Of a stretch of 64,000 nt of DNA, positions 19,608 to 60,426 are shown one piece after another. The notes beneath the pieces were generated by a model, which searched no databases, was not told the origin of the DNA, and worked only from the letters and a program-made list of their open reading frames with translations. Every line of letters starts with the position of its first letter. The first letter of the stretch is position 1. The stretch lies in the NCBI GenBank assembly GCA_040877915.1, contig JBBDNA010000006.1, positions 26,993 through 90,992 on the forward strand. Direction: 5' to 3'. A program made the translations under genes and the position numbers. This stretch comes from Dehalococcoidia bacterium (GTDB taxonomy: Bacteria > Chloroflexota > Dehalococcoidia > SM23-28-2 > RBG-16-64-32).

Positions 19608-20014
19608 CTAGACGATTCCAGTGTTAGCACCGCTGCTCCTCGCCTTCGGGCCGGGGCAGCACGGCCTGCTGATACGCTCCGGCAGGCGGATCAGCAGGCG
19701 GGCGCCGCGGGGCTGTTTGCCTCCCCAGACGACCCCGCGGCGCCCACATCTCCACCCTATCGGGCGCCTTCGGCCACTCGTGCTCCCGCGCATGCGCATG
19801 GAGAAATTGGAACCGCTCGTCCTGAGCCTGTCGAAGGATGAGCGGGCCACGAACACCAGGCGGCAGCTACAGAACAGACATTCGGAGACTGCCGCGCTTG
19901 GACCCACTCGTCGCCCCTCTCCCGCTCGCGGAAGAGGGGCCGGGCGTGAGGGCCCACCCTTGCACTCCGCCGCCGCGCCACGCATGATACGCGTAGACCC
20001 CGCGCTCTGACGCG

Positions 20015-22925: not shown

Positions 22926-23453
22926 GTGATGAGTTCGCACTGTTTCGGCGCCCGCGTCTACGTGATCCGGCACTACGCATTGCGCTGGTCGAGGGACAAG
23001 CTGGCCCGAAAGTTGGTCGAGCGTGGCCATCGGTTACCGCTCGACGATAGTCTAGAACTACGCGAGGTCACGCGCGACGAAATCAAGCGCTGGGAACGCG
23101 GTGAATCCGAACCGTCGTACGTAACAAAGCGGCATGTGGCTATCGTGCTAAGGATACGCCACGAGATTCTGGATCCCGAAGAGCATCCAGGCGACATTTC
23201 GCCTGAGGGTCTCGTAGCCCTCGCCCGAGCTCGCGGACTCACACCTCCGCAGATAAACCAGTATTGGACACTCACGAAGCAGCGTGCGCTATTCAAAGGC
23301 AATCCCGGAATCGGCGAATGGATCTCGATAATCGAACAACTCAGTATTGCAGAGCAGGGCACGCTGTTCACTAGCGGGACTTGGTGCACGCACTGCGGTG
23401 GCTGGATCGAAGACGGCGACGCCGAGTGCCCGGACTGCGGGAACATAGAATGA
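22926..23453 (+). CDS. XRE-family HTH protein with C-terminal CxxC...CxxC zinc ribbon (CapH/DdrO-like candidate)
   Basis: HTH_XRE-like LARKLVERGH...EVTRDEIKRWERGESEPS. The C-terminus carries CTHCGGWIEDGDAECPDCG. Lower GC (~57%) than its flanks. ATGA overlap with the downstream peptidase gene. Confidence 0.55.
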   Translation: MMSSHCFGARVYVIRHYALRWSRDKLARKLVERGHRLPLDDSLELREVTRDEIKRWERGESEPSYVTKRHVAIVLRIRHEILDPEEHPGDISPEGLVALARARGLTPPQINQYWTLTKQRALFKGNPGIGEWISIIEQLSIAEQGTLFTSGTWCTHCGGWIEDGDAECPDCGNIE

Positions 23454-24238
23454 CACAACCCGAACTGCCTCTTCGGAATATGCCAGCGCACCGACCGGCA
23501 AAGGAGGCAGCCCTTGAACGCGCCCGCCAGATCCTGAGGGAATCTGGCATTGACGGACCCCCGGTCGACATCGAGCGCGTGGCCCGTCTAATGGGCACTG
23601 TCGCTGTCGAGGAAGCCAGGCTTGGCGATGTGGCTGCTTGTCTCCTCCCAGGAACGAGAGGCCATACGATTCTGATTAACCGGCGATCACACCCGCTCAG
23701 ACAACGGTTTTCCATAGCACATGAGATCGGTCATCTCATCCTCGGTGCTCGTGGAATTCGTTTCCGAGACATGCGGACGGGACCTGCTGAAAGGTTGTGT
23801 GATGAGCTCGCGGCGGAGCTACTCATGCCCCACGAGATATTTACCCGCGAGATGGACGCCAAGCCGGTATCCCTTGATACCATCTGCGATCTAGCCAACA
23901 CCTTTCAGACGGCGCTAGAGCCTGCCGCTATCCGTTTCGGCGCTCTTGTGTCGGCTCCGGTCCAGGTTGTGTATTGGGAGAAGGTCGAGGATCACCTTCG
24001 CATCAAGTGGACGAATGGAAAGCCAATGCTACCCCGCACTGCCACTATGGGCCTCTTGACCGACCGGGCATTCGGTCCTGCAGAGGCGTTCAATTCCGAT
24101 AGTGAGGAAGGGGTCACGACTTACGCACATTCTTCGCGCTCGAAAAGCCTCGACCTGATCTGCGAATCCAAAGGCTTCAGAGAGCGCCCGTACAGATATG
24201 TTCTGTCTTTGGTTCGCAGGGAAGTAGTGCACGGCTAG
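23450..24238 (+). CDS. ImmA/IrrE-family (COG2856, DUF955) zinc metallopeptidase
   Basis: HExxH motif SIAHEIGHLIL with downstream E (ELLMPHE). Start trimmed to ATG 23450, which overlaps the HTH gene stop. A classic XRE-HTH + ImmA pair. It ends 14 nt before nrdJ. Confidence 0.75.
   Translation: MTQPELPLRNMPAHRPAKEAALERARQILRESGIDGPPVDIERVARLMGTVAVEEARLGDVAACLLPGTRGHTILINRRSHPLRQRFSIAHEIGHLILGARGIRFRDMRTGPAERLCDELAAELLMPHEIFTREMDAKPVSLDTICDLANTFQTALEPAAIRFGALVSAPVQVVYWEKVEDHLRIKWTNGKPMLPRTATMGLLTDRAFGPAEAFNSDSEEGVTTYAHSSRSKSLDLICESKGFRERPYRYVLSLVRREVVHG
24192..24206 (+). promoter_or_regulatory. Palindrome ACAGA-TATGT-TCTGT upstream of nrdJ (candidate NrdR-box-like operator)
   Basis: A perfect 5-bp inverted repeat around an AT-rich core that contains the -10-like TATGTT, about 45 nt upstream of the nrdJ GTG. 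It resembles the ACAC/GTGT-armed NrdR box with one change per arm. Confidence 0.35.
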
Positions 24239-24251
24239 AGGAGGCCAACCA

Positions 24252-27119
24252 GTGACCATCACCCGACCAGACACCCGAACCCGACGACAGGCCAAGAACG
24301 GCGCCCACAAGCCGGCCGCCACCAACGGCAAGCACGCCCCGGCCCTCCGACAGCGCGAGCGGCTCATCCAGCGCCGCTTCACGACGCCGGAGGTCGACCC
24401 CTACGACGCGCTGGCGTGGGAGCTGCGCACCGCCGTCATCCAGGGCTCCGACGGCACGCCCGTTTTCGAGCAGAAGGACGTCGAGTTCCCCGTCGGCTGG
24501 TCGCAGAACGCGACGAACGTCGTCGCCTCCAAGTACTTCCGCGGCCCCCTCAGCGATTCGGCGGCGGCAGCGCCCGGTCGCAACGCGCCCGTGCGCGAGC
24601 GCTCCGTGAAGACGCTGATCGACCGCATCATCGACAACATCACGCGCTGGGGCCGCGAGGGCGGCTACTTCGCCGACGAAGACGAAGCCGCCGCCTTCCG
24701 CGACGAGTTGAAGCACATCCTGGTCAACCAGGTCGCCTGCTTCAACTCGCCCGTCTGGTTCAACCTCGGCATCGAGGAGAAGCCCCAGTGCTCCGCCTGC
24801 TTCATCCTGGCCATCGATGACGAGATGGACAGCATCCTGGAGTGGTACCGCACCGAAGGCAAGATCTTCAAGGGCGGCTCCGGCTCCGGCATCAACCTCT
24901 CGAACCTGCGCTCGTCCAGGGAGCGGCTGACCGCGGGCGGGCTGGCCTCGGGGCCGGTGTCGTTCATGCGCGGGGCGGACGCCATCGCCGGCACGATCAA
25001 GTCCGGCGGCAAGACCCGTCGCGCCGCCAAGATGGTCATCCTCGACGCCGGCCACCCGGACATCGAAGAGTTCATCGACTGCAAGGCGAAGGAGGAGCGC
25101 AAGGCCTACGCCCTGGGCGAGGCCGGCTACGACGTGACGCTGGACGGCGACGCCTGGATCTCCATCCAGTACCAGAACGCCAACAACTCCGTCCGCGTGG
25201 CCGACGACTTCATGCGCGCCTACGAGGAGGACGGCGAGTGGCAGACCCGCTACGTCACCAACGGCGAGCCGGCCAACACCTACCGCGCCCGCGAGCTGAT
25301 GCGTCGCATCGCCCAGGCGGCCTGGGAGTGCGCCGACCCCGGCATGCAGTACCACACCACGATCAACGACTGGCACACCTGCCCCAACACCGGGCCGATC
25401 ACCGCCTCCAACCCCTGCTCCGAGTACATGCACCTCGACAACTCCGCCTGCAACCTGGCCTCGATAAACCTGCTGAAGTTCCTCCGGGAGGAACAAGGGG
25501 AAGCGGAGGGCGGTCCTGTTCCTGGTACCTTGAACCCTGTTCCTGGCGTCGATGTCGGGGCCTACTTCGACATCGACGCCTATAGGCACACCTGCGGGGT
25601 CATGATCACGGCCCAGGAGATCATCGTCTCCAACTCCTCCTACCCGACCGAGAAGATCGCGAAGAACGCGGAGGACTACCGGCAGCTGGGGCTGGGCTAC
25701 TCCAACCTGGGCGCACTGCTGATGTCGCTGGGCACCCCGTACGACTCGGACGAGGGCCGCGCCCTGGCCGCCGCCCTCACCGCCGTCATGACCGGCCAGG
25801 CCTACGCCACCTCCGCCGCCATCGCCGCCCGCGTCGGGCCGTTCAAAGGCTACGAGCTGAACCGCGAGCCAATGCTGCGCGTCATCGAGAAGCACCGCGC
25901 CGCCACGAGCGAGATCGACGATGCGGAGGCCCCCCCTCCGCTCGTGGCGGCGGCCCGCCAGGCCTGGGACGAGGCGCTGGCCCTCGGGCAAGAGTACGGC
26001 TATCGAAACTCGCAGGCGACGGTCCTCGCGCCCACGGGCACGATCAGCTTCATGATGGACTGCGACACGACGGGTATCGAGCCGGATATCGCCCTGATCA
26101 AGTACAAGAACCTGGTCGGCGGCGGCCTGATGAAGATCGTCAACTCCTCGGTGCCGCGCGCCCTGCACGGGCTCGGCTACGACGAACAGGCGTCGGAGGC
26201 CATCCTGGCCCACATAGACGAGACCGGTACCATCGAGGGCGCGCCCGGCCTCCTCGACGAGCACCTCCCGGTGTTCGACTGCGCGTTCAAGCCGCAGAAC
26301 GGCGTGCGCACGGTCCACTGGACGGGTCACGTGCGGATGATGGGCGCGGTGCAGCCGTTCATTTCCGGCGCCATCTCCAAGACCGTCAACCTGCCGGAGG
26401 ATGCCAGCGTCGAGGAGATCGAGGAGGCGTACTACGAGGGCTGGCGGCACGGGCTGAAGGCGCTGGCCATCTACCGCGACGGCTCCAAGCGGGCGCAGGT
26501 CCTGAGCACGAGCAAGGACGGCGACGCGAAGGCCAAGGACGAGCCTGCGGGCCACCCGGTGCGACGCCGCCTCCCGGCGACCCGGACGTCGCTCACCCAC
26601 AAGTTCGCGATCGAGGGGCACGAGGGGTACATCACGGCCGGTCTGTACGAGGACGGCTCGCCGGGCGAGATCTTCGTGACGATGGCCAAAGAGGGGTCGA
26701 CGCTGTCCGGCATGCTGGACGCCTTCGCCACCTCCATCTCGCTGACGCTGCAGTACGGCGTGCCGCTGCACGACATGGTGAACAAGTTCTCGCACATGCG
26801 GTTCGAGCCATCGGGGCGGACGGAGAACGCCGAGATACCGGTGGCCCAGTCGATCGTCGACTACATCTTCCGCTGGCTGGCCTCGCAGTTCATGAGCGAG
26901 GAGGAGAAGGAGCAGTTCGGAGTGCTATCGCCGGCGGTGAAGGCGAAGATGATGGCGGCGGAGTACGGGACGCCCCCGGCGCTGGCCGGCAACGGCGCCA
27001 GCTACAACAACTCGGGGCAGACGGACGCGCCGCCCTGCGCCAGCTGCGGCTGGATCATGGTGCGCTGCGGCACCTGCTACCGCTGCGACAACTGCGGCAC
27101 GACGAGCGGCTGCGGCTAG
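24252..27119 (+). CDS. nrdJ: Class II (adenosylcobalamin-dependent) ribonucleotide reductase, long form (955 aa)
   Basis: Large RNR catalytic core (NSVRVADDFM, LAPTGTISFMMDCDTTGIEP, ISKTVNLP), a C-terminal CASCGW...CGTCYRCDNCG zinc ribbon, no nrdB/nrdF partner, nrdR upstream. GGAGG RBS then GTG. Confidence 0.85.
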   Translation: MTITRPDTRTRRQAKNGAHKPAATNGKHAPALRQRERLIQRRFTTPEVDPYDALAWELRTAVIQGSDGTPVFEQKDVEFPVGWSQNATNVVASKYFRGPLSDSAAAAPGRNAPVRERSVKTLIDRIIDNITRWGREGGYFADEDEAAAFRDELKHILVNQVACFNSPVWFNLGIEEKPQCSACFILAIDDEMDSILEWYRTEGKIFKGGSGSGINLSNLRSSRERLTAGGLASGPVSFMRGADAIAGTIKSGGKTRRAAKMVILDAGHPDIEEFIDCKAKEERKAYALGEAGYDVTLDGDAWISIQYQNANNSVRVADDFMRAYEEDGEWQTRYVTNGEPANTYRARELMRRIAQAAWECADPGMQYHTTINDWHTCPNTGPITASNPCSEYMHLDNSACNLASINLLKFLREEQGEAEGGPVPGTLNPVPGVDVGAYFDIDAYRHTCGVMITAQEIIVSNSSYPTEKIAKNAEDYRQLGLGYSNLGALLMSLGTPYDSDEGRALAAALTAVMTGQAYATSAAIAARVGPFKGYELNREPMLRVIEKHRAATSEIDDAEAPPPLVAAARQAWDEALALGQEYGYRNSQATVLAPTGTISFMMDCDTTGIEPDIALIKYKNLVGGGLMKIVNSSVPRALHGLGYDEQASEAILAHIDETGTIEGAPGLLDEHLPVFDCAFKPQNGVRTVHWTGHVRMMGAVQPFISGAISKTVNLPEDASVEEIEEAYYEGWRHGLKALAIYRDGSKRAQVLSTSKDGDAKAKDEPAGHPVRRRLPATRTSLTHKFAIEGHEGYITAGLYEDGSPGEIFVTMAKEGSTLSGMLDAFATSISLTLQYGVPLHDMVNKFSHMRFEPSGRTENAEIPVAQSIVDYIFRWLASQFMSEEEKEQFGVLSPAVKAKMMAAEYGTPPALAGNGASYNNSGQTDAPPCASCGWIMVRCGTCYRCDNCGTTSGCG

Positions 27120-30627: not shown

Positions 30628-31773
30628 CTAAAGGCGGCGCAGGACGGGCCGCGGCAGCCTGGCCCGCAGGTACTCGGCCAGCGCCTTCACGTAGCGCGCC
30701 CCGCTCTGGCGCACCATGTAGTGGCCGCGCTCGCTGTGCCAGAAGCCGGCGCTGCGGCCTATCTCAGCCAGGATGTCGCCCATCTTCTCCTGCGAGAAGT
30801 CGTCGGCGCTGCGGCACAGCTCCAGGACATCCGGTAGCACCTGGTGCAGGGCGCCGGCCCCCAGCGGCTTCTGGATCACGTATTCCTTCGGATCGTCGAA
30901 CGCGCTTTGCCAGCGCTCCCGCGCCGCCCGCCAGTAGTTGAGCAGCAGCTTCCCCGCTTCCTCGTCCGTCAACCGCTTGACGAAGCCGTCCCGCACAACG
31001 GGGTCCAAAGACGACACCATACTGTGCTGTCGCATCAGGTGGCTGGGGCGCCGCTTCTCGCCCGGCATCAGGATGATCCCGTACCAGGGGCTGGAGGTAT
31101 CGCCGTTGAGGATGTCGCACAGCTTCGTGGCGCGACCGCGCAGGAAGTTCTTCTCCCCTTCCCGCTCCAGCAGCGTCGCCCCCTCGGACTCCAGCATTGT
31201 GAGCAGGTGGCGGTCGACGACGTCCGTGGGCACGCCCTTCTGGCGGGTGTTGATCACGTGGAAGTAGCGCATCTCCTCGTAGGCGTCTATCCCCTCGACG
31301 ATGGTCACCGGCAGGGGGTACTCGCTGAGCCAGCCGGCGTTGTCCTTGGTCAGAGCCATCTGCAGCCCGAACAGCCGGTGCTGGCCGTCCACCAGCCACA
31401 TGTCCACGCTGGCCGGGATCGTCAGCATCCCGGGTTCACCGCTGGCGCCGTCGAAGCCGGCCGGCTCGAAGGTGGCGCGGTCGGGCTGCCGGATGCACAG
31501 CAGCAGCGAGGTTGGCAGCACCCCTTCTTCGTGCCGCATGTAGGAGGACACCTGTCGCAGCCGCGACTGTGTGAGGGGACGCTGGTAGCCCTGCTTGCGG
31601 TCGTGCCTGTACGTATCGGGCCGGCAGCGGCCCAGGAGGTCCCTGAGCGGGAAGACGGCGGCATAGAGGTTGACGTCCGGCCTCTTCTGGCGGAACCGCA
31701 CGGCGAAGGCGCGCAGTACCGTTCGCGCGTCCGTCTGCTGGGTCTGTTGCGCAGCCGAGGTAGGGGATGTCAT
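30628..31773 (-). CDS. DGQHR-domain protein (DndB-like, ParB/Srx-fold) - orphan
   Basis: Motif MWLVDGQHRLFGL plus an upstream GYQRPL, 381 aa. No dndACDE, ssp or pbe partner genes in the window. Divergent from the second nrdJ. Confidence 0.7.
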   Translation of the reverse strand: MTSPTSAAQQTQQTDARTVLRAFAVRFRQKRPDVNLYAAVFPLRDLLGRCRPDTYRHDRKQGYQRPLTQSRLRQVSSYMRHEEGVLPTSLLLCIRQPDRATFEPAGFDGASGEPGMLTIPASVDMWLVDGQHRLFGLQMALTKDNAGWLSEYPLPVTIVEGIDAYEEMRYFHVINTRQKGVPTDVVDRHLLTMLESEGATLLEREGEKNFLRGRATKLCDILNGDTSSPWYGIILMPGEKRRPSHLMRQHSMVSSLDPVVRDGFVKRLTDEEAGKLLLNYWRAARERWQSAFDDPKEYVIQKPLGAGALHQVLPDVLELCRSADDFSQEKMGDILAEIGRSAGFWHSERGHYMVRQSGARYVKALAEYLRARLPRPVLRRL

Positions 31774-31899: not shown

Positions 31900-34311
31900 A
31901 TGACTATACGCCAACCGAGCGGCGAGGCCAAGATACCCTTTTCCGAAAACGCCCGCCTTGTCCTGGAGCGGCGCTACCTGGCCAGGGACGCGGACGGACG
32001 GCCCGCTGAGACCCCTGAGCAGATGCTCCGCCGCGTCGCCCACAACGTGGCCCAGGCCGAGCGTTCTTACAAGCCGCTCGAGGCTATCGACGACGCCGCG
32101 CGCTGGGAAGAGCGCTTCTACGAGCTGATGGCGCGGCTGGAGTTCCTCCCCAACTCGCCGACCTTGATGAACGCCGGCCGCGAGCTGCAGCAGCTCTCCG
32201 CCTGCTTCGTGCTCCCCGTCCCCGATAGCATCGAGGGCATATTCCAGGCGATCAAGGACACCGCCCGCATCCACCAGTCCGGTGGCGGCACCGGCTTCGC
32301 CTTCTCCCGTCTGCGGCCCGAAGGCGACCGCGTCCAATCGACGATGGGCGTGGCCTCCGGACCGGTCTCGTTCATCAAGGTGTTCGACGCCGCTACCGAG
32401 GCCATCAAGCAAGGCGGTACCCGCCGCGGCGCCAACATGGGCATCCTGGCCGTAACCCACCCCGACATCGAGAAGTTCATCACGCTCAAGAGCGACATGC
32501 GCACGCTCACCAACTTCAACATCTCCGTGGCCCTGACCGAGGAGTTCATGACCGCCGTGGAAGAGGACCGCGAGTACGAGCTGGTGAACCCCCGCAGCGG
32601 CGAGAGCGCCGGCCAGCGCCGCGCCCGCCACGTCTTCGACCTGCTGGTGGCCAACGCCTGGCGCAACGGCGACCCCGGCATCGTGTTTATCGACCGCATC
32701 AACCGCGACAACCCTACCCCAAACGTTGGCGAGATCGAGGCTACGAACCCCTGCGGCGAGCAGCCGCTGCTCCCCTACGAGTCCTGCAACCTCGGCTCCC
32801 TCAACCTCGCCAGGTTCGTCCGCGGCAACGGCTCGAAGAGCAAGCTCGACTGGAAGCGCCTCGCCGAGGTCATCCCCCAGTGCGTCCGCTTCCTCGACGA
32901 CGTCATCGACGTCAACCGCTACCCGATCGAGGAGATCGACCAGGCCACGAAGCTCACCCGCAAGATCGGCCTGGGCGTGATGGGCTGGCACGACGCCCTC
33001 CTCCAGCTCGGCGTGCCCTACGACTCCGAGGAGGCGCTGGCCCTGGGCGAGGAGGTGATGCGCTTCGTCCAGGAGAAGGCCAACGAGGCGTCGCTGGACC
33101 TAGGCCGCGAGCGCGGGACCTTCCTCGCCTTCGAAGGCTCCCGCTACGACCCGCACAACCCCTACCGCAACTCGACGCGCACCACCGTCGCCCCCACCGG
33201 CACGCTGTCCATCATCGCCGCCTGCTCGTCGGGCATCGAGCCGCTGTTCTCGCTCGCCTACACCCGCCGCCACTACCTCGACCCCGACGACCCCTCGAAG
33301 CTCACGGAGCTGACCGAGGCCAACGAGCACTTCGTCCGCGTCGCGAAGGCCGAGGGGTTTTACTCCGACGACCTGATGCAGCAGCTGGCGGCCGGCGGCA
33401 GCCTGCGCGACCGCGACGACGTCCCCGACGCCGCCAAGCGGCTGTTCGTCACCGCGCACGACATCTCGCCGGAGTGGCACGTGCGCATGCAGGCCGCCTT
33501 CCAGCGCCACACCGATAACGCCGTCTCCAAGACGATCAACTTCCCCTTCGCCGCCACAGAGGCCGACGTGGCCTCCGCCTACTGGCTGGCCTTCCGCGAG
33601 GGCTGCAAGGGGATGACGATCTACCGCGAGGGCTCCCGCCCGTTCTCGGTGCTGTCGCACGCGGCGCTGAACGTCAAGGGCCCGGAGCAGGAGACCGAAG
33701 AGGCGCTGGCCGAGATCGAGGGGATCATCGCCACGACGGAGCGGCCGCGCCCCTACCGCCAGCACCTCCCCGACGAGCGGCGTTCGATCACGCACAAGTT
33801 CCGCGTCGGCGACCAGGAGGGGTACATCACCGCCGGCCTGTACGAGGACGGCCGCCCGGGCGAGATCTTCGTGAAGATCGCCAAGGAGGGGTCGACGGTG
33901 TCGGGGCTGATGGACGCCGTGGCCCTGCTGACCTCCGTGACGCTGCAGTACGGCGTGCCGGTGCAGGACCTGGCCCGCAAGCTGAAGAACACCCGCTTCG
34001 AGCCCTACGGCCGCACCAACAACCCGGACATCCCCTGGGCGACCTCGGTCGTCGACTACGTGTTCCGCTGGCTGGAGCGCAAGTTCTCGCCGGAGACCGC
34101 CGGCGCCGACGCCTCCGCCCACCCAGCACCCCCGCTCGCCCTGAGCGAGTCGAAGGGCCGAGCCAACCCCGCTCACCCTGAGCCTGTCGAAGGGGGAGCG
34201 GGGCGACGCGCCGAGGCCACCGGCCTGGGCTGCCCGGACTGCGGCGCCCTGCTGGTGTACCAGGAGGGGTGCCTGGTCTGCCGCTCCTGCGGCTTCAACA
34301 AGTGCGGGTAG
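31900..34311 (+). CDS. nrdJ: Class II (adenosylcobalamin-dependent) ribonucleotide reductase, short paralog (803 aa)
   Basis: Start trimmed to ATG 31900 (MTIRQPSGEAKIPFSENARLVLERRYL). The ORF-track N-extension overlaps the DGQHR gene on the opposite strand. The core is paralogous to 24252..27119 and carries a C-terminal CPDCGALLVYQEGCLVCRSCGFNKCG zinc ribbon. Confidence 0.85.
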   Translation: MTIRQPSGEAKIPFSENARLVLERRYLARDADGRPAETPEQMLRRVAHNVAQAERSYKPLEAIDDAARWEERFYELMARLEFLPNSPTLMNAGRELQQLSACFVLPVPDSIEGIFQAIKDTARIHQSGGGTGFAFSRLRPEGDRVQSTMGVASGPVSFIKVFDAATEAIKQGGTRRGANMGILAVTHPDIEKFITLKSDMRTLTNFNISVALTEEFMTAVEEDREYELVNPRSGESAGQRRARHVFDLLVANAWRNGDPGIVFIDRINRDNPTPNVGEIEATNPCGEQPLLPYESCNLGSLNLARFVRGNGSKSKLDWKRLAEVIPQCVRFLDDVIDVNRYPIEEIDQATKLTRKIGLGVMGWHDALLQLGVPYDSEEALALGEEVMRFVQEKANEASLDLGRERGTFLAFEGSRYDPHNPYRNSTRTTVAPTGTLSIIAACSSGIEPLFSLAYTRRHYLDPDDPSKLTELTEANEHFVRVAKAEGFYSDDLMQQLAAGGSLRDRDDVPDAAKRLFVTAHDISPEWHVRMQAAFQRHTDNAVSKTINFPFAATEADVASAYWLAFREGCKGMTIYREGSRPFSVLSHAALNVKGPEQETEEALAEIEGIIATTERPRPYRQHLPDERRSITHKFRVGDQEGYITAGLYEDGRPGEIFVKIAKEGSTVSGLMDAVALLTSVTLQYGVPVQDLARKLKNTRFEPYGRTNNPDIPWATSVVDYVFRWLERKFSPETAGADASAHPAPPLALSESKGRANPAHPEPVEGGAGRRAEATGLGCPDCGALLVYQEGCLVCRSCGFNKCG

Positions 34312-34390
34312 ATTGACTTCTTAGAACATCCGCCCTAAACTCGAGCAAGCGAAGCGCCTCACGTTTCGGTGTCCTACCGGGAGTCGCCGC

Positions 34391-35383
34391 ATGATCGAAA
34401 GACTCGAAGGGTTTGCCCTCCTAGACCTCATGAGGAAATTGCCTGAGCAGTCGAAGTATGACTGCAAGAGAGATCTTACTCTCGACAGCCACGACCGAAA
34501 GGCGGAGCTGATCAAAGACATCACCAGTATCGCGAACGCGCACGGAGACGAGGTGGGCTACCTTTTCTTCGGTGTTGATCCAGTAAGTAGCGAACTCGCG
34601 GTTGGTATCACCCAGCGCCATGACGACGCGACTCTTCAGCAAATAGTGAATTCGAAACTGGAGCGGCCCGTCTCCTTCCTGTACTACGAAACTGAGGTGA
34701 ACGGTAGCTGGGTGGGAGTAGCTGTGATTCCGCCGAGTATCACCCGTCCGCACATCATTAAGGCGCAGTACGGGAGGCTTCGCGCGGGTCAGATTCCCAT
34801 ACGCAGGGGCTCAAGCACGACGTGGGCAACCAGCGAGGACCTCCAACTGATGCTGGAACGCCAGCGTGCTCGGGAGTCCCAAGGTCAGGATATAGCTGAA
34901 CTCGTGCGAAGAGCCGGGGATCCCGCTGTGCCCGTGGCACAACTTGCTCTCGAAGTATGGCAGCTAGGATCGCAGGTCGCGCCGCCCGAACATCTTGAAT
35001 GGCTACGCCTGGAAATCGCTGGGTTCAAGACGGGAAGCGTGGTGCCTGATTACCGTGAAGTAGCCGGCCACGTCTCTGTCTTTGAAATAAATCTGAAAGC
35101 ACTGTCCTTCCACAATCTCGATTCCATCGTTCAGACTGAGCCAGATAAATTCAAGGAGGTGCCCCTGAGACTAGGGCAGTCAATCGCTGAGCTAGAGGAC
35201 ATGCTCGGCCCTGATGGATCGGGCCAGGGCGCGGGATTTTTCCAGACTCGGCGTCAGTTCGAGACGCAGAACGGGGAGGCTGTGGAGGCATACCTCTACT
35301 TCAAGCCTAGTGCTGTCAGACGAGTCGTCACATTGATAAGGAATCGCATTGCGCGTTTCCTTATGACGCTTCATGCAAGTTAA
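34391..35383 (+). CDS. AlbA_2 / Schlafen-like divergent AAA-ATPase-fold domain protein (low-GC)
   Basis: DITSIANAHGDEVGYLFFGVDPVSSELAVGI fits the AlbA_2 (PF04326) core (AFANt.GGyliiGVdd). GC about 52% vs about 68% elsewhere. C-terminal half has no recognisable domain. Confidence 0.5.
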   Translation: MIERLEGFALLDLMRKLPEQSKYDCKRDLTLDSHDRKAELIKDITSIANAHGDEVGYLFFGVDPVSSELAVGITQRHDDATLQQIVNSKLERPVSFLYYETEVNGSWVGVAVIPPSITRPHIIKAQYGRLRAGQIPIRRGSSTTWATSEDLQLMLERQRARESQGQDIAELVRRAGDPAVPVAQLALEVWQLGSQVAPPEHLEWLRLEIAGFKTGSVVPDYREVAGHVSVFEINLKALSFHNLDSIVQTEPDKFKEVPLRLGQSIAELEDMLGPDGSGQGAGFFQTRRQFETQNGEAVEAYLYFKPSAVRRVVTLIRNRIARFLMTLHAS

Positions 35384-35466
35384 CACTTACAAGACGCCCT
35401 CAAACGGAGTTCGGCGAACCCTGGAAGCTAATCGGAAAACAAACGCCCCCTGCTATACTCCTCCCC

Positions 35467-39262: not shown

Positions 39263-40192
39263 CTACCCGTCGGCGTAGCGCCGGGCCAGCGACTCCGCCT
39301 CGACGCGTACACGCTCCACGGCCTGCGGCGGCGACAGCACCCGCGCCGAGGTGCCCCAGCTCAGCACCCAGGGCAGCAGCCGGCGCTCGTCCCAGCGCCT
39401 GAATACGAACACGGAGCCGCCTTCGCCCGGCTCCTCCCGCTCCAGTGCGTAGGACGGCGATTCGCGAGCCCAGGGCACGGCCGCCGCCTCGATCCAGACG
39501 CGCACCTCGGGGCCCCAGCGCTCGTGGTCGTGGCCGTCGAAGCCGACGGTCGCCCGTCGCTCGAACCCTTCGTCCAGCAGCTGCGCCCTCCGGACGCGCC
39601 CGACCCGGAAGTCGCGGACGCCCTCTCGCAGGCGGCAGTGGCCGACGAGGTGCCAGTCGTTCTCGTAATACAGGAGGTAGTGCGGCTCTACCTGCCGCTC
39701 TGTGATCTCGTCGGAGCCGAAGGAGTGGTAACGCAGGTGCAACACCCGCTCCCGCAGGACTGCCTGCTGGAGCACGGGCAGCCAGGGCGAGGGTTCGCGC
39801 TTCTCCCACGAGGACACTCGTATGCGGTCGCGCAGGCGGTCGACGGCCTGCCGCGTCTCCGGGCGCAGGACGGCCTCGACTTTCGCCGCCGCCGAGCGCG
39901 TGGCCTCGCGGTCCGCGGCCGTGCCCATGCCGAGCGCCAGGTCGCTACCCAGCAGCAGCTGCACCGCCTCTTCGGCGGTCAGGGCCACCGGCGGCAGGTG
40001 GTATCCGGGCACCAGGCGGTAGCCCTCGCCAGGCAGCGCCGCCACCGGCACCCCCGCCTGGCAGAGAGCATCGATGTCGCGGTACACCGTCCGCACCGAG
40101 CAGCCGCACTCCTGCGCCAGATCGGCGGCGCGGAGCGGCGTCTCTTCACGGAGGCGCATCAGGATCAGCAGCCGCCTGTCCATCTGTTTCAT
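39263..40192 (-). CDS. WYL-domain transcriptional regulator (HTH + WYL + C-terminal extension; YafY/PafBC-like)
   Basis: Trimmed to ATG 40192. N-terminal HTH_11 (LLILMRLREETPLRAADLAQECGCSVRTVYRDIDAL), a central WYL region (HYLLYYENDWHLVGHC) and a C-terminal WCX-like tail. Divergent from yggS. Confidence 0.7.
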   Translation of the reverse strand: MKQMDRRLLILMRLREETPLRAADLAQECGCSVRTVYRDIDALCQAGVPVAALPGEGYRLVPGYHLPPVALTAEEAVQLLLGSDLALGMGTAADREATRSAAAKVEAVLRPETRQAVDRLRDRIRVSSWEKREPSPWLPVLQQAVLRERVLHLRYHSFGSDEITERQVEPHYLLYYENDWHLVGHCRLREGVRDFRVGRVRRAQLLDEGFERRATVGFDGHDHERWGPEVRVWIEAAAVPWARESPSYALEREEPGEGGSVFVFRRWDERRLLPWVLSWGTSARVLSPPQAVERVRVEAESLARRYADG

Positions 40193-40254
40193 AGCTGGCT
40201 CACGTGTGCCGGGGCCAGGCAATTATACAACCCGCCGTTGCTATACTGGCAGCG

Positions 40255-47404: not shown

Positions 47405-47480
47405 GGCCCCGTGGTGTAGCGGTTAACATGCCAGCTTGTCAAGCTGGAGATCGTCGGTTCGAATCCGATCGGGGTCGCCA
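47405..47480 (+). tRNA. tRNA-Asp (anticodon GTC)
   Basis: Hand-folded cloverleaf: acceptor GGCCCCG/CGGGGTC, D-arm GTGT-AGCGGTTA-ACAT, anticodon stem CCAGC/GCTGG with loop TTGTCAA (GTC), T-arm GTCGG-TTCGAAT-CCGAT, discriminator G, encoded CCA. Confidence 0.85.
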
Positions 47481-60277: not shown

Positions 60278-60426
60278 AGCGTACCCTCCGGACACGGCGC
60301 CACCATTATCCACCGCTCGTGCCTGTCGAAGTGCGCGCGGCTCCCCCCTTCGACGACCTCAGGGTGAGCGGGATTGGCCGGGTTGGATACGCTGATTTCG
60401 CACAAGAGTGCGGGGCGCGGCGGCCG

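Follow-up and report, generated by a model that had tools for sequence, protein, structure and literature searches.

We analyzed a stretch of 64,000 nucleotides (positions 26,993 to 90,992 of contig JBBDNA010000006.1, assembly GCA_040877915.1; hereafter the window) from a Dehalococcoidia bacterium, and found that the gene next to the 3' end of nrdJ2, which encodes a class II ribonucleotide reductase (RNR), codes for a predicted Schlafen-type nuclease domain fused to an AbiTii domain. The open reading frame (ORF) of this gene, which we call Slfn-AbiTii, runs from 34391 to 35383 on the plus strand, starts with ATG and encodes 330 amino acids. Its product is identical to NCBI MEX0800397.1, which is named 'RNA-binding domain-containing protein' and comes from a 352-kb contig of a Dehalococcoidia bacterium metagenome-assembled genome (MAG), and an alignment of 11 full-length homologs showed that the window protein is not truncated. 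A preceding reading of the letters alone (hereafter the sequence-only reading) had placed the gene just 3' of nrdJ2; both this placement, with 79 nt between the nrdJ2 stop and the Slfn-AbiTii ATG, and the exact ORF coordinates were confirmed. Reasoning from characterised relatives, we think it probable, with some reserve, that the protein is a single-polypeptide antiviral of the prokaryotic Schlafen (pSlfn) class and of the abortive-infection type, in which AbiTii would gate a Schlafen tRNase.

The N-terminal half matched SLFN_AlbA_2 (PF04326) over residues 19–144 (34445..34822, plus strand) with 56.1 bits against a gathering score of 25.3, covering profile positions 1–115 of 118. The AlbA_2/Schlafen assignment of the sequence-only reading thus holds, and the motif that it quoted, IANAHGDEVGYLFFGVDP, is residues 47–64 within this match. 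The local sequence P18-E19-Q-S-K-Y-D24-C-K26 contains the predicted catalytic motif E19-x4-D24-x-K26 (EQSKYDCK; 34445..34468, plus strand), which fits Ex4(E/D)xK, the active site of prokaryotic Schlafen nucleases; RorSlfn5 carrying E15A/D20A is inactive (Perez Taboada et al., PMC13056530). E19, D24 and K26 are unchanged across the alignment of 11 homologs, and E-x4-D-x-K is present in 25 of the 26 diverse full-length representatives of the fusion. When PDB sequences were searched with a profile, the top match was CbCash (9ylu, E 1.2e-11), and the alignment, which covers only the Schlafen part of CbCash (chain residues 16–165), pairs E17, D22 and K24 with E19, D24 and K26. In CbCash these three residues and Mg2+ form the catalytic centre cutting the T- and anticodon loops of tRNA, and E17Q, D22N and K24A each abolish tRNA cleavage (PMC13462974). 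The full-length AlphaFold2 (AF2) model had a mean predicted local distance difference test score (pLDDT) of 78, with blocks of 68–88 in the N-terminal domain (residues 1–130) and values below 50 in the interdomain linker, residues 136–164 (34796..34882, plus strand). Foldseek with this model returned 2kyy (E 1e-5), 3lmm, SLFN13 (5yd0, E 8e-4) and the DNA-binding and tRNase domains of SAMD9 (tRNase 9o0d, E 9e-3) at a probability of 0.99–1.0; the TM-scores were low because the query also contains the second domain. Judged from its residues, the N-terminal domain looks catalytically competent.

The C-terminal 170 residues, in which the sequence-only reading saw no recognisable domain, do contain one. 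Residues 169–329 (34895..35377, plus strand) matched AbiTii (PF18864) with 56.8 bits against a cut-off of 27.6 (E 4.4e-15), spanning profile positions 4–165 of 189, and the PADLOC AbiTii model PDLC02334 matched as well (3.7e-15). E208 (codon 35012..35014, plus strand) is the invariant glutamate of (W/F)xxxE(I/L)xG and is unchanged in 26 representatives; the other AbiTii residues unchanged among the fusions are R222 and Y303. AbiTii has been described as carrying a 'highly conserved glutamate', and it is found in Lactococcus lactis AbiTii and also fused N-terminally to the c2405 and Ymh HEPN RNases (Anantharaman et al. 2013, PMC3710099). According to a 2026 review, AbiTi, with which AbiTii is paired in AbiT, is a predicted endoribonuclease, and mutations that escape AbiT lie in early genes and in the major capsid protein. 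Modelled alone, the AbiTii domain reached a pLDDT of 92.4 and a predicted template modelling score (pTM) of 0.85. A word-indexed homolog search with the C-domain profile returned one protein, P0007, alone, and we therefore took AbiTii architectures from Anantharaman et al. 2013.

An exhaustive profile search of 1.84 billion representatives gave 4165 matches, which were mostly Schlafen-only, and full-length proteins of 316–350 residues with both domains formed at least 26 clusters at 50% identity. One fusion bears the Joint Genome Institute (JGI) label 'AbiTii/Putative DNA-binding domain'. The architecture is therefore recurrent and visible to automated annotation; our literature search found it unmentioned, and the main texts of PMC13056530 and PMC13462974 do not name it. 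The pairwise identity was 50–82% (mostly 50–75%) for the N-terminal domain and 23–55% for the AbiTii domain, except in the close pair at loci L014 and L102, where the latter was 81% (loci from other genomes carry L numbers). pSlfn5 has the same asymmetry, and in that family the variable C-terminal domain is the phage sensor (PMC13056530). Both domains are under purifying selection, the ratios of nonsynonymous to synonymous substitution rates (dN/dS) of the two being 0.16 and 0.24 in the L014/L102 pair, the sole pair with unsaturated dS; dS was saturated in all other pairs, so that their ratios are meaningless.

Slfn-AbiTii is an accessory gene at a variable hotspot. We screened by tblastn 80 metagenomic loci encoding relatives of the nrdJ2 C-terminus. 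At two of them the site is empty: in L020 (nrdJ2 C-terminal end 80% identical to that of the window) the ABM gene follows after 71 nt, and in L045 (61%) the cupin gene follows after 6 nt. Other cargo lies at two more: L023 (67%) has an unrelated ORF in a stretch of 0.57 GC (guanine plus cytosine) content, a metallo-beta-lactamase-fold gene and the cupin gene, and L024 (64%) has two unrelated 0.56-GC ORFs, a metallo-beta-lactamase-fold gene and the cupin gene. Alleles located directly after nrdJ2 were 53% (L017–L019), 49% (L001), 55% (L100), 52% (L101) and 44% (L102) identical to the window protein. The last ~70 nt of nrdJ2 is a recurrent point of insertion or duplication among the relatives. 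In L024 (4856–5620) a 72-nt duplicate of the nrdJ2 3' end, 79% identical and coding for the Zn-ribbon, lies on the far side of the first cargo ORF, and in L103 (1146–1230) a degraded nrdJ2 C-terminal end, terminating in GCLVCRSCGYNRLG and a stop, lies directly 3' of its Slfn-AbiTii allele. Such duplicated or relic nrdJ2 ends beyond low-GC cargo resemble the leftovers of island insertion into the 3' ends of genes; no integrase is visible on the short contigs L024 and L103.

In the window the cassette appears as a low-GC single-gene insert of ~1.13 kb (34312..35440) between nrdJ2 and the cupin gene, with a GC of 0.555 against 0.66–0.74 in the flanks. nrdJ2 itself (31900..34311, plus strand; Pfam Ribonuc_red_lgN/lgC/TSCPD) sets the left border with its stop codon, and the right border was inferred because the host motif TGCTATACT occurs at 35451. 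At these borders a search for direct and inverted repeats gave short matches at chance level only, and there was no target-site duplication and no integrase. A 25-nt GC-rich repeat, CGCTCRCCCTGAGCSWGTCGAAGGG, was also seen in the window at 19814–19838, 34133–34157, 34170–34194 and 60346–60370 (minus strand), that is, 4 copies against 0 expected. Two of these copies stand in tandem and in frame in the variable C-terminal linker of nrdJ2, ~120–180 nt before the stop, and form an imperfect palindrome; the repeat may contribute to recombination at the nrdJ2 hotspot. Another feature of this gene among the relatives is a LAGLIDADG-type intein in the nrdJ2 of L017 (6329–9922; 1197 residues vs 803), which the window nrdJ2 does not have.

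The dip in composition seen by the sequence-only reading is real and sharp, although the GC of the gene was measured to be 55.4%, not ~52%, against 67.8% for the window. The GC content at third codon positions (GC3) is 0.61, compared with 0.94 for nrdJ2 and 0.80–1.00 for the other ORFs passing the coding filter, and host-rare codons make up 16.4% of the gene, whereas in 23 host genes they average 3.0% and reach 5.8% at most. That reading also called the gene clearly acquired. It is accessory, as the empty sites show, but its low GC is no mark of recent arrival in the host genome, because the alleles at the same site in relatives are equally low in GC: all alleles have a GC of 0.52–0.57, and the flanks are at 0.66–0.68 in the four loci with enough flank (L017, L001, L102 and the window). 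The alleles of L017–L019, L001, L100, L101 and L102 thus rule out an argument for recent acquisition from GC alone. The GC3 of the alleles (window, L017, L001, L100–L103) stays at ~0.6 in hosts whose GC3 is ~0.9. The alleles are also far more diverged (dN 0.38–0.63, dS saturated) than the flanking backbone genes (dN 0.09–0.32, dS 0.46–0.88). The divergence and the lasting low GC3 point to exchange of old alleles via the conserved flanks, or to selected atypical codon usage.

A consensus scan found a candidate promoter of Slfn-AbiTii, TTGACT-17 nt-TAAACT (34313..34341, plus strand; 1 site vs 0.3 expected), which begins 2 nt past the nrdJ2 stop. A promoter-like spacer, TTGAC..AGAACAT..GCxCTA..T, is conserved in four loci (window, L017, L100 and L101) and is missing in L001 and L102, where the spacer is ~20–27 nt; the order in L102 is nrdJ2, 19 nt, Slfn-AbiTii, 13 nt and the cupin gene. 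By eye, a Shine-Dalgarno-like GGAG (34380..34383, plus strand) lies 7 nt 5' of the ATG. There is no convincing intrinsic terminator on the plus strand 3' of the gene; Rfam gave nothing near it, the sole match being a tRNA at 47405, and the protein had no NCBIfam match.

The cassette has also moved elsewhere. The protein P0008 of L014 shares 82% identity, in either domain, with the L102 protein. Its gene sits in another, lower-GC context without an RNR gene, next to genes for a type I HsdR, a Dsr1-like protein (PADLOC 1.8e-42) and an SNase-type protein. L014 9958–11024 and L102 3076–4148 match as DNA over 1073 nt at 83.4%. The upstream end of the L014 segment includes the last ~25 nt of nrdJ2, GAGTTCAACCGGTGCGGGTGA, and its downstream end includes a frame-broken relic, ~35 nt long, of the cupin 5' end, and therefore the copy was lifted from an nrdJ2/cupin locus as a single-gene fragment. 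Since purifying selection was kept after this move, an autonomous function is favoured and an obligatory link to the RNR is disfavoured. Among the more distant fusion homologs, one of 36% identity is encoded on an archaeal contig (Methanomassiliicoccales; L002, 6625–15499) directly after the terminase large subunit (TerL). Close to it are genes for a second SLFN_AlbA_2 protein (479 residues), a Swt1-type HEPN protein and an fn3 tail-like protein, and the region may be a provirus with several RNase-type defence genes. In L104 a homolog is found in an element resembling an integrative and conjugative element (ICE), with integrase, Fic, Toprim and TrwC relaxase. In the few loci sampled, homologs thus stand in a defence island at L014, in a provirus-like region at L002 and in an ICE-like element at L104. 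Together with the retained pSlfn motif, these contexts of distant homologs make a stand-alone defence role, which the sequence-only reading had offered, the best-supported reading.

In the mechanism that we propose, the Schlafen/AlbA_2 domain would be a Mg2+-dependent endoribonuclease with the predicted active site E19/D24/K26, and AbiTii would be the sensor or regulator that keeps the nuclease off, probably by oligomeric packing, until an infection cue, most likely a phage protein, is received. The freed nuclease would cut tRNA loops, and possibly rRNA, to stop translation, and the stop would arrest the infected cell and lower the phage yield. The gene would be expressed from its own promoter beside the nrdJ2 stop and reside as a 1.1-kb cassette in the hotspot at the nrdJ2 3' end. 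The RNase activity, its tRNA target, the role of AbiTii as sensor, the kind of trigger and the defence phenotype are all inferred. Homology to RorSlfn5 and CbCash suggests that tRNA loops would be cleaved in a Mg2+-dependent manner and translation thereby arrested, with abortive infection or growth arrest as the outcome. AbiTii is assigned the role of a sensor or autoinhibitory module because RNases (AbiTi, HEPN and Schlafen) are repeatedly found with it and because it evolves faster than the other half of the protein. A phage protein is thought to be the most likely trigger by analogy with the capsid escape mutants of AbiT and with RorSlfn5, which senses a tail assembly chaperone. Because AbiTii stands beside AbiTi and is fused to the HEPN domains of c2405 and Ymh, an AbiTii-gated RNase appears to be a recurring design, and AbiTii may be a portable gate that serves three or more RNase effectors unrelated to one another (AbiTi, HEPN and Schlafen). 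In that case the compact fusion would give access, in one protein, to how AbiT works, a question unsolved since 2002.

Several observations weigh against this reading. The Slfn-AbiTii fusions are known from sequences and models, and the full-length AF2 model (pTM 0.47) leaves the domain interface undefined. The AbiTii model has no significant relative in the PDB (best Foldseek E 0.06) or in BFVD (best E 0.02), and its profile gave nothing usable among PDB sequences (best E 0.26); the fold is effectively uncharacterised. Neither tblastn against phage genomes nor a search of PHROGs found a homolog, and plasmid matches cover the N-terminal domain only and are annotated 'ATP-binding protein'. There is no complete known defence system within 10 kb of the gene, and the sole nearby PADLOC match is an orphan DpdB/DndB-like backbone gene 2.6 kb off. 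Even within the pSlfn class, ~30% of the genes are unlinked to defence genes and 2 of the 7 pSlfns tested protected E. coli (PMC13056530). Finally, adjacency to nrdJ2 or a relic of it was seen in 8 of the 8 close homologs examined, and it could reflect a functional linkage instead of shared history.

The genes around the cassette do not form the small defence/stress island that the sequence-only reading had imagined. In order they are ftsA, ftsZ, DUF3048, nrdR, a low-GC helix-turn-helix (HTH) and IrrE/ImmA-like pair, nrdJ1, PAS-GGDEF-HD, a DGQHR gene on the minus strand, nrdJ2, Slfn-AbiTii, the cupin gene and the ABM monooxygenase gene, with a WYL regulator, YggS, proC and RNase Y farther 3'; the annotated ORFs between 17 and 45 kb are housekeeping, metabolic or regulatory, with a few that have no family match. 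The DGQHR gene is syntenic backbone, the HTH/ImmA pair is 10 kb from Slfn-AbiTii and directly 5' of nrdJ1, and a contiguous defence island around the gene was ruled out by neighbour annotation and synteny.

The DGQHR gene (30628–31773, minus strand) is DndB/DpdB-like (Pfam DndB 1.3e-14, PADLOC DpdB 1.4e-19) and divergent from nrdJ2. It has a host-like GC3 of 0.91, is syntenic with nrdJ2 in L017, L023 and L024, in relatives with or without Slfn-AbiTii, and has no other dnd or dpd genes nearby. The low-GC pair between nrdR and nrdJ1 (22926–23453 and 23381–24238, plus strand) has GC3 values of 0.66 and 0.60 and 15–18% rare codons. The product of 22926–23453 has 175 residues and no family match; that of 23381–24238 is an IrrE/ImmA-type metallopeptidase of 285 residues with a HEIGH motif (Peptidase_M78 4.9e-15, PADLOC capP 5.3e-31). 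This pair may be a CapH/CapP- or DdrO/IrrE-like damage-responsive switch on an RNR rather than a defence item. The WYL/PafC-like HTH-WYL-WCX regulator (39263–40222, minus strand; PADLOC WYL 3.2e-55) lies 4 kb 3', and no link to the Slfn gene was found. The backbone resumes at the extended -10-like host motif TGCTATACT (35451..35459, plus strand), 7 nt 5' of the cupin start. This motif has 5 copies in the window (31878, 35451, 35848, 37097 on the minus strand, and 40239) against 0.03 expected, each just 5' of a backbone gene; it stands 7–33 nt 5' of the starts of nrdJ2, the cupin gene, the ABM gene and a minus-strand ORF of 241 residues, and it occurs too in the spacer of L020, where the site is empty. 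Its placement suggests a promoter type with a short leader shared by these genes.

Four other explanations were weighed. The gene could be selfish, toxin-like cargo, whose nuclease maintains or spreads the cassette, or targets DNA and not tRNA, with no net anti-phage benefit. In its favour are the form of the cassette, low in GC and holding one gene, its site at a recombination hotspot whose target ends are duplicated, and its occurrence on ICE-like and provirus-like elements, although defence genes travel on mobile elements just as typically. DNA binding is known for some AlbA_2 and SAMD9 domains (7ksp), but those prokaryotic relatives that share the E-D-K site and have been characterised cleave tRNA without inducing the SOS response (literature). 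A small ribbon-helix-helix (RHH)-type gene after the L017 allele could be an antitoxin; it is found only in L017–L019, and not in the window, L102 or L014, so that no conserved partner or antitoxin accompanies the fusion. We regard selfish cargo as unlikely.

The gene could instead encode a stress RNase that is not chiefly antiviral but answers to stress on nucleotides or replication. Sharing its regulation or its transcript with nrdJ2, it would sense a shortage of deoxynucleoside triphosphates (dNTPs), replication stress or single-stranded DNA and throttle translation, loosely like human SLFN11. The eight close homologs at the nrdJ2 3' end or its relic (window, L017, L001, L100, L101, L102, L103 and L014) speak for it, the short gaps in L102 suggest one transcript, and SLFN11 is recruited to stalled forks and binds single-stranded DNA (literature). 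The neighbourhood contains nrdR, the IrrE/CapP-like protease pair and the WYL/PafC-like regulator. Against it, orthologous nrdJ2 loci can lack the gene (L020 and L045 are empty, L023 and L024 have other cargo, and the rest of the nrdJ2-like loci among L021–L046 are without it), and the L014 copy is under purifying selection in both domains away from any nrdJ, in a defence island. More distant fusion homologs have no RNR neighbour, and a separate promoter is conserved in four loci. We consider a stress RNase of this kind quite unlikely, and give similarly little credence to the idea that residence at the nrdJ2 3' end is itself functional, the protein monitoring RNR, dNTP or replication status, which phages often hijack, and firing its tRNase. 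If that were true, it would be a bacterial counterpart of the link between SLFN11 and replication stress, in which the maintained rare codons would throttle the toxin.

More doubtful still is a non-catalytic binder or regulator, in which AlbA_2 would only bind RNA or DNA. The NCBI name 'RNA-binding domain-containing protein' and the legacy labels 'ATP-binding protein' and 'HTH transcriptional regulator' speak for it, but the legacy labels are older than the recognition of Schlafen nuclease activity, and Pfam found neither an HTH nor a HATPase domain in the protein. The top Foldseek matches, 2kyy and 3lmm, come from structural genomics, are uncharacterised and belong to the RecG-related or regulator-like class of AlbA_2 proteins, and several mammalian Schlafens have no catalytic residues (literature); in Slfn-AbiTii, by contrast, the E/D/K triad is intact and invariant. 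That the gene is a decaying relic of an old transfer, without function now, is hardly credible: the atypical codon usage, the absence of partner genes and the loss of the gene in relatives would agree with it, but the ORF is unbroken, has its full length and keeps every conserved motif, dN/dS is low in the informative pair and the promoter is conserved.

An AbiTii-gated Schlafen tRNase acting against phages is therefore the reading that we carry forward, and it overturns no current view. Prokaryotic Schlafen tRNases were shown to be antiviral only in 2025–2026, and what their fused domains sense is an open question; an AbiTii-Schlafen protein of 330 residues would be a small, tractable case for studying both AbiTii action and the common gating of Schlafen effectors. 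In Dehalococcoidia, whose phage biology has hardly been studied by experiment, the locus documents a hotspot for defence-type cassettes where a class II RNR gene has its 3' end, and L014 preserves a sequence fossil of the move of one cassette into the defence island of another genome.

Several known systems share one half of the protein or its general plan. AbiT of L. lactis (Bouchard et al. 2002) also pairs an RNase, the predicted endoribonuclease AbiTi, with an AbiTii domain, but it consists of two genes with a stand-alone AbiTii, whereas here AbiTii is fused to the C-terminus of an unrelated Schlafen RNase. Membership in two-gene AbiT was ruled out because the insert is one gene flanked by nrdJ2 and the cupin gene, with no AbiTi; no small partner gene is conserved beside Slfn-AbiTii at the orthologous loci. 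The AbiTii-HEPN fusions c2405 and Ymh (PMC3710099) are conflict-system proteins in which AbiTii is likewise joined covalently to an effector predicted to be an RNase. In those fusions AbiTii is N-terminal and the effector is HEPN, while Slfn-AbiTii has the opposite order and a Schlafen effector; no HEPN family was found by Pfam even at E<=10, so the protein falls outside this group too. The PADLOC candidate PDC-S50 matched over positions 10–148 of 387 (E 8e-9), that is, in the shared Schlafen part only, and membership was ruled out because the match is partial.

CbCash (9ylu; Nat Commun 2026, PMC13462974) is the best sequence match among solved structures, with aligned catalytic residues. It is also from a Chloroflexi bacterium, and its 297 residues comprise an N-terminal Schlafen domain and a regulatory C-terminal domain. 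The regulatory domain of Cash is, however, a Csx15 Rossmann-like domain that binds cyclic tetra-adenylate (cA4) from type III CRISPR, in place of AbiTii, and activation from dodecamer to filament is a feature of Cash; Slfn-AbiTii is described here from a gene and a model. There is no Csx15 domain, and no cas genes were found among the annotated neighbours in the window, in which CRISPR arrays were not specifically scanned; the protein is thus not a Cash member. The tRNase domains of mammalian SLFN11/SLFN13 and SAMD9 share the fold class (Foldseek 0.99–1.0 to 5yd0 and 9o0d), the carboxylate-lysine motif and, by analogy, probably the theme of antiviral tRNA cleavage, but the mammalian proteins have two-lobe Schlafen cores with helicase or other large modules and other regulation, and the identity is 14–21%.

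The closest likeness is to the pSlfns RorSlfn5 and EcoSlfn7 (Perez Taboada et al., Nat Microbiol 2026, PMC13056530), which also have an N-terminal SLFN_AlbA_2 nuclease domain with Ex4(E/D)xK and a faster-evolving C-terminal accessory domain in a single polypeptide, and whose genes are likewise patchy accessory genes. The accessory domains named in the main text of that report, which lists 55 architectures, are Ig-like, DUF262, His-kinase, HTH, DUF5929 and TBP-like, compared with AbiTii here, and the protein of this study comes from a Dehalococcoidia MAG and is known from its sequence. It has every sequence and structure feature of the pSlfn class that could be tested, namely SLFN_AlbA_2, the motif, the fold and a fused accessory domain. 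We thus place the Slfn-AbiTii protein, from its sequence, as a probable and hitherto uncharacterised member of the pSlfn class, of which the putative AbiTii sensor would be the distinctive feature.

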